DNA of 30,187 nt. Source: a virus (Duplodnaviria; Heunggongvirae; Uroviricota; Caudoviricetes). Location of the stretch: IMG/VR virus record IMGVR_UViG_3300029033_000135; one strand, 5' to 3'. The position numbers and the translations under genes are program-made. Positions 12,944-28,573 of this stretch are shown here, piece after piece (within the stretch, counting starts at the first letter, position 1; every line of letters begins with the position of its first letter). The notes under the pieces were generated by a model. The model was not told where the DNA came from and made no database searches. It saw nothing but the letters and a program-made list of their open reading frames with translations.

Positions 12944-13118
12944 TGCCTGTCATTCAGTGATGGCACAATGTGCGGTCACATCCCCGATCCATGTCGGGAG
13001 GGCGACGAATACAACACCCGCAAGGGGAATAAGTCCGCGGTATCTTTTGGGCCGTTTCGAGCCTCCCGGCACCACATTTTGTGGTGGCATTTCTCGAAAA
13101 AAGCCAAAGGAGGTCATC

Positions 13119-13736
13119 ATGACCACTCAACTCATCCCTGTGTTTGAAGGTACAATCTCAAATGAACCTACGCTTCTGGTGAACGCGCGTGATTTGCATG
13201 GGTTTTTAGAGGTAGGTAAAGATTTTTCTAACTGGATACGGGCCAGGCTAAACGAGTATGGATTCGTAGAAAATTTAGACTACATTCTATTTTCGCCAAA
13301 TTTGGCGAAAACTCTAGGCCGCCGCCGCAAGGACTACCACCTCACCCTGGACACAGCCAAAGAGCTTGCGATGGTTGAACGAAACGAAAAAGGCCGCCAG
13401 ATCCGCCGCTACTTCATCGAGTGCGAAAAGAAACTTCGCAACATTCAGCCAGTACAAGCAGAATCACAGCCACAATTTACCGCCGAGGAAATCATCCTCC
13501 TTTGCTACATGCAACTCTGGATGGAAAAAGCCCAGGACCTTAGCAAGCAGCTGTACCCCATAATGAAAGAGCTGAACTCCTCATACACGAACAAGCTGTA
13601 TGACATTGCGTTTGAGACTATCTACATGGTGACGAAGAACAGAGACGCGNNNNNNNNNNNNNCGTCTCGACATGTCAAGTTCCGTTATCCAGCGGGCCAT
13701 GCCAATGCTGAAAAGCCTGCGGGCAAGACAATTTGA
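13119..13736 (+). CDS. Phage antirepressor-like protein (ORF6N / P22 AR N-terminal type domain); C-terminus uncertain because of the assembly gap
   Basis: Strong SD aaggaggt (13107-13114) before the ATG at 13119. N-terminal domain PVFEGT..LLVNARDLHGFLEVGKDFSNWIRARLNEYGFVENLDY is typical of ORF6N/antirepressor domains. A 14-N gap at 13649-13662 makes the downstream frame and stop (13736 or 13743) unknown. Confidence 0.7.
   Translation: MTTQLIPVFEGTISNEPTLLVNARDLHGFLEVGKDFSNWIRARLNEYGFVENLDYILFSPNLAKTLGRRRKDYHLTLDTAKELAMVERNEKGRQIRRYFIECEKKLRNIQPVQAESQPQFTAEEIILLCYMQLWMEKAQDLSKQLYPIMKELNSSYTNKLYDIAFETIYMVTKNRDAXXXXXSRHVKFRYPAGHANAEKPAGKTI
13649..13662. other. Run of 14 N (assembly gap or masked bases) inside the antirepressor gene
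   Basis: Direct observation; flanked by GAGACG (13641-13646) and its reverse complement CGTCTC (13663-13668). Confidence 0.95.
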
Positions 13737-27743: not shown

Positions 27744-28145
27744 TCAGACCGCTATCCTGAACACCATGAAGCCATCCTCATCATCCGGCATTCGCTCAAA
27801 GCCCAGACGTTTTCCCAGCCGGATAAATCCCCGCCTTGCCGTGTGGAATTCAGCCCAGCGTCCGCCAGCCAGACGGGTTAATGTCTTCACCTCCGGCAGA
27901 TAACGCTCAACACCGGCACTCCCCGTACACACACCCAGCAACACCAGAACATAAGGGATACCGTCGTCACTGAGCACAGAACGCAGCACCAGAAAACCAT
28001 CCGGTGCCTCAAAGCAAAATGCCTGCTTTTTAAGGCAGGCGTCTTTAACTTCATTCATAAATTCAGGGTTGCGGGAATTTCTCACAACACGCTGCATATA
28101 CCGGAGAATTGTGTCGTCCATTCTCTCACCAGAAACGGGTGCCAT
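27744..28145 (-). CDS. Hypothetical 133-aa protein
   Basis: ORF downstream of the hok-like gene on the same strand; no family recognised. Confidence 0.45.
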   Translation of the reverse strand: MAPVSGERMDDTILRYMQRVVRNSRNPEFMNEVKDACLKKQAFCFEAPDGFLVLRSVLSDDGIPYVLVLLGVCTGSAGVERYLPEVKTLTRLAGGRWAEFHTARRGFIRLGKRLGFERMPDDEDGFMVFRIAV

Positions 28146-28201
28146 ATCGGCTGAACCTCAGCAACCAGTTGACGGGGACTTTCGTCCCCGTCGCGGTTTT
28201 C

Positions 28202-28342
28202 CTACTGCTTACACTGTAAGAACGCCGCAAACTCCGCTCCCCACAAATTCAGCCGGAACTCACACAACGAGCCGTGTAACATCCAGATGGTGAAGATCAC
28301 CGTCATACAAATTGTGACGGTGATGAGCGATTTTTGCGACAT
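28202..28342 (-). CDS. Hok/Gef-family type I toxin-like small membrane protein (46 aa)
   Basis: Translated by hand (too short for the ORF track): MSQKSLITVTICMTVIFTIWMLHGSLCEFRLNLWGAEFAAFLQCKQ. The pattern IC.T..FT.....SLCE.R....E.AAFL matches Hok/Gef; SD aggagg lies 8 nt upstream. Confidence 0.6.
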   Translation of the reverse strand: MSQKSLITVTICMTVIFTIWMLHGSLCEFRLNLWGAEFAAFLQCKQ

Positions 28343-28403
28343 AGCGCTTGCCTCCTGAGTGGAGAGGCGCTAACCTTCTACTTGCTTAAGGTATGATGGT
28401 TAG

Positions 28404-28440
28404 GGCCTCGGGTTAACATTAAAGTTGACTCGGGGCCTTT
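28404..28440 (+). ncRNA. Possible Sok-like antisense RNA hairpin, or hok leader structure
   Basis: 14-bp stem ggcctcgggttaac / gttgactcggggcc with three G-U wobble pairs that work only in plus-strand RNA, followed by ttt; lies antisense to the hok-like leader. Confidence 0.25.
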
Positions 28441-28522
28441 CCACATCAGGCCTTCAGGTTCACCTTCCAGCCATCAGCCGAAAGGCACCCGCGCATAATC
28501 TACGATTTTTGCCCTGCACGGG

Positions 28523-28551
28523 CAACAAAAAACCCGCTATCACAGCGGGTT
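28523..28551 (-). terminator. Intrinsic terminator downstream of the lom-like gene
   Basis: On the minus strand: aacccgct-N5-agcgggtt hairpin followed by tttttt, 23 nt after the stop. Confidence 0.8.
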
Positions 28552-28573
28552 ATGACATGTTGTCGGGTATTAC

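Follow-up and report, generated by a model that had tools for sequence, protein, structure and literature searches.

A probable type I toxin-antitoxin cassette of the hok/sok family without an overlapping mok reading frame, beside lom in a 933W/Sp5-like Escherichia coli prophage sequence

The virus record IMGVR_UViG_3300029033_000135 of IMG/VR, analyzed here over its whole length of 30,187 nucleotides (the window), very probably carries a self-contained type I toxin-antitoxin cassette of the hok/sok family. The cassette spans about 390 bp (28525-28134), lies as an accessory gene ("moron") in a 933W/Sp5-like Escherichia coli prophage, where lom and the following late gene flank it, and is described here together with a proposed mechanism. 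The toxin is not new: it is annotated and catalogued, its toxicity has been reported, and the cassette around it is an ordinary one of the hok/sok family. The group to which its toxin belongs (Hok cluster 72) has no conserved mok frame and, if it is regulated at all, offers a natural setting in which to ask whether the hok family can do without Mok coupling, a matter explicitly left open in a 2025-26 survey of Hok proteins (Escalera-Maurer et al., bioRxiv 10.1101/2025.08.07.668861).

Copies of the cassette were collected from E. coli, Salmonella, Escherichia albertii, Citrobacter, and IMG/VR with a seven-peptide alignment as the query, which gave 65 unique copies; structure and covariation were scored on an alignment of 61 sequences. 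Mean pairwise identity among the unique copies is 0.76 to 0.88 within 28523-28134 and about 0.48 outside. At the edge marked by the hok -35 hexamer it is 0.49 upstream and 0.68 to 0.86 downstream, and at the right edge conservation stops at about 28134, with an identity of 0.48 beyond. This drop at both edges therefore defines a mobile cassette of about 390 bp. Of 5,426 complete E. coli genomes, 1,552 (29%) carry it, and it occupies two unrelated phage contexts, namely, after lom, as in the window, and directly after the ogr/Delta gene at the right end of P2-like prophages, where the copies are about 80% identical and adjoin the attachment junction (serS, ihfA, or tRNA-Leu). One copy is plasmid-borne. 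About 20 nt past the 3' fold-back inhibition (fbi) element of the mRNA (Table 1), an intrinsic terminator is found in P2-type copies; lom-type copies, the window included, are without it. In the window the lom terminator (28551-28531) lies upstream of the hok promoter, and Rfam, run over the window from end to end, gave no further hok/sok locus.

The toxin gene is an open reading frame (ORF) on the minus strand, and its product, read from 28342 to 28202, is MSQKSLITVTICMTVIFTIWMLHGSLCEFRLNLWGAEFAAFLQCKQ (46 amino acids). The AUG stands 8 nt downstream of a ribosome-binding site, AGGAGG (28356-28351); a 46-codon Hok-like ORF with a good Shine-Dalgarno (SD) sequence had been described in a sequence-only reading of this region and is indeed there. 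The peptide matches the Pfam family HOK_GEF (PF01848) at 33.2 bits (gathering score, 22; E = 4e-8), with residues 8 to 44 aligned to profile positions 6 to 42 of 42, and matches PHROG 251 ("MokW-like host killing") over its full length at 85.8 bits (E = 2.8e-24). The logo in the Hok survey gives M1, C16, T18, L30, C31, E32, and E41 as present in more than 80% of 1,264 Hoks (bioRxiv 10.1101/2025.08.07.668861), and all seven residues occur in the window's peptide, as M1, C12, T14, L26, C27, E28, and E37 (survey alignment, row 1589). RefSeq calls the ORF "Hok/Gef family protein" (WP_000078907.1), with identical DNA in E. coli prophages; the description of the ORF as unannotated thus applies to older phage records (933W and VT2-Sakai) only. 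Two narrower NCBIfam models were not reached by the peptide, the HokA equivalog NF007290 (38.4 versus a cut-off of 89) and the Hok subfamily NF007279 (22.7 versus a cut-off of 73). Named Hoks share 24 to 42% identity with it, and the peptide, 42% identical to HokA, is not HokA. The ratio of nonsynonymous to synonymous substitution (dN/dS) in hok is about 0.23, indicating purifying selection on the peptide, and the 10 ORF variants that encode exactly the window's peptide differ at 10 sites, all synonymous.

The toxicity of this peptide is a result of others, reported in Table S2 and the text of the Hok survey (bioRxiv 10.1101/2025.08.07.668861). The exact peptide is listed there as 72_1589, from a high-abundance cluster, among the sequences tested; the copies in P2-like prophages encode 72_1621 or close variants, and 72_1589 and 72_1621 were both cloned. 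The text of the preprint states that 42 of 45 tested Hok homologs were toxic upon arabinose induction, both of these falling among the 42, and names the nontoxic exceptions as 19_179, 60_1482, and 69_1540, with 72_1589 not one of them. Because 72_1589 is in the tested set and outside the three exceptions, the controlled-expression experiment suggested along with the sequence-only reading has in effect been published already. The survey covers coding sequences only and says that Mok, Sok, and mRNA structure were not analyzed. The RNA anatomy, the missing mok, and the two phage contexts are not in it.

The hok promoter and the mRNA that it would give were read from the sequence and from computed folds. 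The predicted -35 and -10 hexamers (Table 1) are 17 nt apart, and the predicted transcript start falls at about 28492-28490, at GCGGGUGCC, the same motif that opens the hokW and hokC mRNA leaders. In the minimum free energy (MFE) fold of 28492-28130, positions 28492-28484 pair with 28135-28143 and 28481-28474 with 28147-28154, so that the 5' end (tac) and the fbi element form a 17-bp helix. The tac-fbi helices are 97 to 98% paired in the 61 copies, versus 32 to 47% in controls with the partners slid. Double compensatory changes in the end pairing were read from the alignment (CGGCU/AGCCG in the window, CGACC/GGUCG in Citrobacter braakii, and CGAU/AUCG in S. diarizonae); the helix is otherwise mostly invariant or wobble-varying. 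Next to the start codon, the MFE folds place the ribosome-binding site in a local hairpin (-14.8 kcal/mol), whose basal helix is 99.7% paired and varies between G-C and G.U. The third element is a hairpin just after the hok stop codon, which folds, flanks included, at -20.4 kcal/mol (z = -4.7; none of 200 shuffles reached this stability), is 99.8% paired in the 61 copies, and has four pairs in which both partners vary (one, for instance, is A-U in 35 copies and G-C in 26). Over the combined structure, 90.3% of cells are paired in the 61 sequences, compared with 32 to 47% when the partners are slid by 1 to 3 columns, and the covariation score is 0.115 versus 0.077 in shuffles (0 of 500 reach it), with 10 pairs changed on both sides; these statistics carry the reservation that the sequences share ancestry and that one of them supplied the structure.

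The hairpin after the stop codon had been taken in the sequence-only reading for a 3' fold-back element of the kind found in hok mRNAs. The stem-loop exists, as its z score attests; the element complementary to the 5' end is a different one, 28154-28135, about 30 nt further 3'. As a terminator of hok the hairpin was likewise rejected, for on the hok strand it lacks a following run of U. In the plus-strand reading (28170-28193), the same hairpin is followed by CGGTTTTCCT and scores as terminator-like, and it could also halt antisense transcription arriving from downstream.

Opposite this leader, on the plus strand, a Sok-like antisense RNA is predicted. Its -35 hexamer reads TTGCTC, TTGCCT, TTGACT, or TTGTCT in 64 of the 65 copies, with a spacer of 17 to 18 nt (17 in the window), and its start was placed 7 nt past the -10 hexamer TAACCT; in 933W the annotated sokW begins 7 nt after an identical hexamer. 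Plus-strand RNA of 28383-28445 folds at -29.5 kcal/mol (z = -5.4), compared with -16.0 kcal/mol (z = -2.7) for the complementary minus-strand RNA. The difference comes from three pairs that are mismatched in hok-sense RNA (A.C or C.A) and become G.U in plus-strand RNA. One of these, 28433-28408, reads C.A in hok-sense RNA, hence U.G in plus-strand RNA, in 64 of 65 copies. The sequence-only reading had pointed to a 14-bp stem at 28404-28437 with G-U pairs possible only in plus-strand RNA, and the comparison bears this out: the hairpin is more stable as plus-strand RNA in 61 of 61 copies, with 94.8% of its cells paired versus 79.9% in hok-sense RNA. For the tac-fbi helix the bias is reversed, 97.3% on the hok strand versus 91.0% on the plus strand, and opposite biases of this kind would be expected where two RNAs of opposite orientation overlap. 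One compensatory change, G-C to A-U, was found at the base of the Sok stem in C. braakii. The stem base is nearly identical to that of the SokC terminator hairpin (GCCUCGGG...CUCGGGGC), and the plus-strand hairpin is a homolog of the Sok terminator hairpin; the type I layout suggested in the sequence-only reading is upheld. Between the predicted Sok start and this hairpin, 28403-28384 is the identity minimum of the cassette (0.62, versus 0.83 to 0.87 in the flanks), with 21 variants, including indels, in the 65 copies; this hypervariability of the Sok tail is consistent with a loss of coding constraint.

A covariance-model search, which had been proposed as a check, gave a divided answer. The Rfam family RF01794 matches the leader over the full model (1-157) at 28490-28331 on the minus strand with E = 2.4e-7, and the 40.7 bits of this match stay under the gathering score of 59. 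The window's leader accordingly looks like a divergent homolog of the hok/sok leader that falls below the curated cut-off. Although RF01794 is named "sok antitoxin," its hits fall on the hok-sense strand and take in the hok start codon, and their strand should be interpreted accordingly. A conflict of strands was considered and rejected: in E. coli K-12 hokC/sokC the model scores 118 bits on the hok-sense strand (L003, 502-654), opposite the annotated sokC (553-611), and was evidently built hok-sense.

A mok frame overlapping hok is absent from the window and from 933W; between the Sok target and the hok AUG a stop interrupts each of the three frames, and no start codon comes after the last one. 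The GAGG-N8-AUG site of mokC reads GAGG-N8-AUCAUACCUUAA in the window and provides no start codon at the place where the mok start sits in hokC and hokW. Among the unique copies, 41 of 65 have no leader ORF overlapping the hok start. The other 24 have heterogeneous starts (ATG at -130, ATG at -103, TTG at -46, and GTG), all in a single open frame, and 24 of 65 is about the one-third expected if indels randomize the frame. The window has a 22-codon leader ORF (Table 1), which ends 35 nt before hok. Its AUG at 28446 is present in 61 of 65 copies, within the invariant anti-tac element, and is absent from the most divergent ones, C. braakii and S. diarizonae; its stops fall anywhere from -78 to +137 relative to the hok AUG. 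As a conserved Mok this ORF was rejected, its frame and stop not being conserved, and it was kept as a minor rival. A literature search for mok-less hok loci, or for a small RNA beside lom in Sp5, found nothing relevant.

The mechanism that we propose starts with transcription from a sigma-70-type promoter, which would yield a hok mRNA of about 360 nt from the minus strand. At full length this mRNA would be inert, its 5' end locked on fbi by the 17-bp helix and its ribosome-binding site held in the local hairpin. The plus strand would give a Sok-like RNA of about 60 nt, whose promoter overlaps the hok ribosome-binding site and whose sequence would be fully complementary to the leader at about 28383-28443. 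Trimming of the mRNA 3' end would free the 5' end to pair with anti-tac (GGAAAGGCCCC), whereupon GAGGC would be released to take the anti-SD and the hok ribosome-binding site would be exposed. Sok bound to anti-tac and GAGGC would restore the sequestration and form an RNase III substrate; with the decay of Sok, Hok would be made and would insert into the inner membrane. In contrast to classical hok/sok, no Mok reading frame would be coupled into hok.

The anti-tac pairing is almost invariant (97.7% in the 61 copies), and a conformer in which tac (28490-28480) pairs with anti-tac (28441-28432) lies only 0.7 kcal/mol above the MFE in the processed mRNA, compared with 14.4 kcal/mol in the full-length one. 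In that conformer GAGGC (28409-28405) and CUAACC (28403-28398) capture GCCUC and GGUUAG (28375-28364), which leaves the ribosome-binding site in a 3-bp stem. The helices of this proposed active conformer are 97.4% paired in the 61 copies, with one-sided, wobble-compatible changes only. Unconstrained partition-function folding, on the other hand, gave no equilibrium switch of the SD by 3' processing or by Sok binding, and that candidate was rejected; a switch appears only with tac:anti-tac pairing enforced. The model of a mok-independent switch is consistent with these data and is unproven. In its full form, which we advance tentatively and think somewhat less than probable, cluster 72 would be a natural mok-independent variant of hok/sok: tac:anti-tac pairing would free GAGGC, the former mok ribosome-binding site, to expose hok, Sok would cover anti-tac and GAGGC, the coding-free tail with its 21 variants would make co-resident copies orthogonal, and the locus may add to the lysis timing so far ascribed to hokW alone.

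Several points weigh against reading the region as a working cassette of this kind. Both RNAs and all four of their ends are predicted. The promoter consensus scan flagged neither the hok nor the Sok promoter (its rule is 9 of 12 positions, and the hok promoter scores under it), the terminator consensus scan flagged no Sok terminator, and the Rfam match is under its gathering score. The tail after the Sok hairpin is only UUUCC, a poor terminator, so termination there is uncertain, and the window's hok transcript, without a terminator after fbi, may run into the next gene. In the helices of the proposed active conformer hardly any position varies among the 61 copies, and no pair has compensatory changes on both sides. 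The SD is paired in every modeled state, and opening it costs 6.4 kcal/mol, compared with 2.9 for hokW and 4.1 for hokC; activation is therefore not explained by thermodynamics alone. Finally, in the 24 of 65 copies whose leader ORF runs into hok, coupling of the Mok type is possible.

The last two points feed the rival that survives best, a classical Mok-dependent locus in which the ORF from AUG 28446 is the Mok equivalent. Ribosomes ending at its UAG (28380-28378), 7 nt before the SD hairpin, would unwind that hairpin and let hok initiate, and Sok would block initiation on the ORF. The AUG, with GAAGG before it, is found in 61 of 65 unique copies, the ORF of the window stops just upstream of the SD hairpin, and the predicted 3' end of Sok abuts the AUG. 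The same AUG opens an ORF overlapping hok in some copies (MNCRE44 and E. albertii), a GUG-started ORF in C. braakii ends in UGAUG on the hok start, and equilibrium folding offers no other route to opening the SD. We nonetheless consider this account unlikely. Its stops are widely spread, its frame is not conserved, and in the 933W copy the ORF ends after 8 codons, in the hairpin loop. The AUG is lost in the two most divergent members, and where it is kept it lies within the invariant anti-tac GAUGUGGAAAGGCCCC, whose RNA structure suffices to account for its conservation. The frequency of ORFs overlapping hok is itself close to the third that random framing would give.

More doubtful still is an orphan or decaying hok, in which the ORF survives untranslated, no functional Sok exists, and the plus-strand hairpin only mirrors a structure in the mRNA. 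The strong sequestration of the SD, the absence of mok, the weak tail of the Sok terminator, and the subthreshold Rfam score would all fit, and the discussion of the Hok survey treats many of the hok loci on the E. coli K-12 chromosome as inactive (bioRxiv 10.1101/2025.08.07.668861). Against decay stand the dN/dS of 0.23 with synonymous-only variation in the window's peptide type, the retention of promoters and all helices across E. coli, Salmonella, E. albertii, and Citrobacter, and the movement of the cassette, intact, between two phage lineages. The three hok-strand mismatches that stay G.U on the plus strand in 61 of 61 copies would be unexpected without a plus-strand RNA, and we hold this rival to be improbable.

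A chance small hydrophobic ORF, whose likeness to Hok is transmembrane composition only, could appeal to the short, hydrophobic peptide, to its low identity to named Hoks (24 to 42%), and to the NCBIfam HokA and Hok models under their cut-offs, yet it is already refuted by the Pfam score over the gathering threshold, the full-length PHROG 251 match (E = 2.8e-24), the presence of all seven residues conserved in more than 80% of Hoks, the homology of the flanking RNA to hok leaders, and variation that follows codon positions. Confinement of the resemblance to generic transmembrane composition had been named as what would overturn the sequence-only reading, and Pfam, PHROG 251, and RF01794 (E = 2.4e-7) show that this is not the case.

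As a probable type I cassette, the locus can be compared with the hok/sok systems already described. The paradigm is hok/mok/sok (parB) of plasmid R1, in which an end-paired mRNA is inert, 3' trimming activates it, Sok binds the leader, the duplex goes to RNase III, and the decay of Sok allows Hok to be made (PMC8621323). The window shares with R1, by prediction, the stable, end-paired inert mRNA, the leader antisense RNA, the sequestered ribosome-binding site, and the small membrane toxin; it differs from R1 in peptide sequence (27% identity), in having no Mok frame for Sok to target, and in being carried by a phage rather than a plasmid. To hokC (gef)/mokC/sokC of E. coli K-12 it is related through a leader alignable via RF01794 (118 bits for hokC, 40.7 for the window) and through the Sok stem base noted above. 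It departs from hokC in peptide sequence (26% identity) and at the mok start, with GAGG-N8-AUC and a stop three codons on in the window, compared with GAGG-N8-AUG in mokC.

Also close is hokW-mokW-sokW of the Stx2 phages 933W and Sp5 (Takada et al. 2021, PMC8621323), likewise a phage-borne type I locus of the hok/sok family, in the same phage genomes. Shared features are the pairing of a 5' GCGGGUGC with a 3' GCACCCGC end, a hairpin past the stop codon, a Sok promoter (predicted in the window) that has an identical -10 hexamer (TAACCT) and overlaps the hok leader, and a ribosome-binding site whose partner is a CCUCU motif lying upstream of it. Unlike HokW, which has 51 amino acids and belongs to cluster 35, the window's peptide has 46, belongs to cluster 72, and is 29% identical; the locus lies by lom in the late region and not near attR, and the in-frame mokW extension (MLNTCR...) is a property of hokW that it lacks. 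That the locus might be hokW-sokW itself, to which the phage record label "MokW-like host killing" would point, was rejected: HokW (MKQQKAM...) is encoded near attR, and both loci occur in 933W and in VT2-Sakai. In 933W an unannotated gap of 430 bp between lom and the next gene holds an intact copy with an identical peptide (NC_000924.1, about 45661-45801; L004, 25662-25802), and in VT2-Sakai (Sp5) the identical 46-aa hok ORF, again placed between lom and the gene that follows, is also unannotated (NC_000902.1, 44701-44841; L100, 1202-1342). Besides the annotated hokW/mokW/sokW, 933W and Sp5 thus each carry this locus, making two hok loci per phage.

The hokW-sokW locus of Sp5 was found to hasten lysis and phage release upon induction (PMC8621323); it is the only phage-borne relative studied to date. 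It has experimental support for dependence on RNase III and Hfq and for a role in lysis (PMC8621323), whereas for the window's locus such support is the reported toxicity of the peptide. The ΔhokW-sokW mutant of Sp5 showed delayed lysis and half the phage yield (PMC8621323); Sp5 carries the second hok locus, and these phenotypes were therefore measured with another Hok toxin gene in the prophage. A role of the window's cassette in prophage maintenance or abortive infection is possible and speculative, and PADLOC-DB returned no family at E <= 0.01 for the hok peptide or for the downstream ORF. On its own, one more hok/sok cassette is an ordinary result of modest value. The occurrence of the same 390-bp cassette in two lineages of temperate phage, together with its hypervariable antisense-recognition segment, makes it tractable for work on antitoxin specificity.

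Table 1. Positions of the hok cassette's features in the window (promoters and RNAs are predicted)
Feature	Position	Strand	Remarks
hok promoter -35, TTGCCC	28520..28525	minus	Predicted, read from sequence; TTGCC kept in lom-type and P2-type copies
hok promoter -10, TAGATT	28497..28502	minus	Predicted, read from sequence; kept as TAGATT or TAAATT
hok mRNA 5' end (tac)	28474..28492	minus	Pairs with the 3' fbi in the MFE fold
Leader ORF of 22 codons, MWKGPESTLMLTRGPNHHTLSK	28378..28446	minus	Not conserved; probably not a gene
Anti-tac element	28432..28441	minus	Would be the alternative partner of the 5' end in processed mRNA; stem 1 of the RF01794 consensus
Hairpin sequestering the hok ribosome-binding site	28343..28371	minus	Anti-SD CCUCUCC (28367-28361) against AGGAGG (28356-28351); from MFE folds
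hok gene	28202..28342	minus	46-aa Hok/Gef-family membrane toxin; cluster 72, peptide 72_1589, WP_000078907.1 (Pfam, PHROG, RefSeq)
Hairpin after the hok stop codon	28171..28192	minus	9-bp stem, 4-nt loop; conserved
fbi (fold-back inhibition) element	28135..28154	minus	Partner of the mRNA 5' end; marks the cassette's right edge
Sok promoter -35, TTGCCT	28348..28353	plus	Predicted; overlaps the hok ribosome-binding site on the opposite strand; position as in hokW and hokC
Sok promoter -10, TAACCT	28371..28376	plus	Predicted; kept in 64 of the 65 unique copies
Sok-like antisense RNA, about 60 nt	28383..28443	plus	Predicted, both ends inferred; homologous to annotated sokC
Sok hairpin	28404..28437	plus	14 to 16 bp with three G.U pairs; its complement is an imperfect target hairpin in hok mRNA
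Hypervariable stretch	28384..28403	both	Single-stranded 5' tail of Sok and its target

Some of the collected copies are unusual. Two mosaic copies (L005, 1660-1800, and L067) have a leader near-identical to the 933W type and a strongly diverged Hok coding sequence (MPQKTIIVSILCITILVIVWMIHNSHCEFRLNIMWSQFAAFLQCKQ, 54% identity), which suggests recombination or rapid diversification within the cassette. An IMG/VR copy (L036, 1349-1714) has its promoter and 5' tac region swapped for unrelated sequence, with the rest intact; it would be a natural 5'-truncated variant in which the end pairing should be impossible. Near-identical enterobacterial cassettes of the P2 type also turned up in assemblies labeled Xanthomonas pisi, Planococcaceae metagenome-assembled genome, and Vagococcus sp. 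(L013, L014, and L016), most likely as contaminating contigs, and one of the three has a masked run of N across the leader.

Elsewhere in the window, the only Rfam match over a gathering score is sRNA-Xcc1 (RF02221, 74.5 bits) at 12993-13078 on the plus strand; this match, which has nothing to do with the hok locus, overlaps the beginning of a 259-aa ORF (12957-13736). Immediately downstream of the cassette, the ORF at 27744-28145 (minus strand) has an annotated start, ATG 28145, that falls within the fbi element. PHROG 610 (228.7 bits; function unknown) aligns to this ORF from residue 9 only, and because the alignment begins there the true start is probably ATG 28121 (MDDTILRY..., with GGTGAGAG before it), just beyond the hok cassette.

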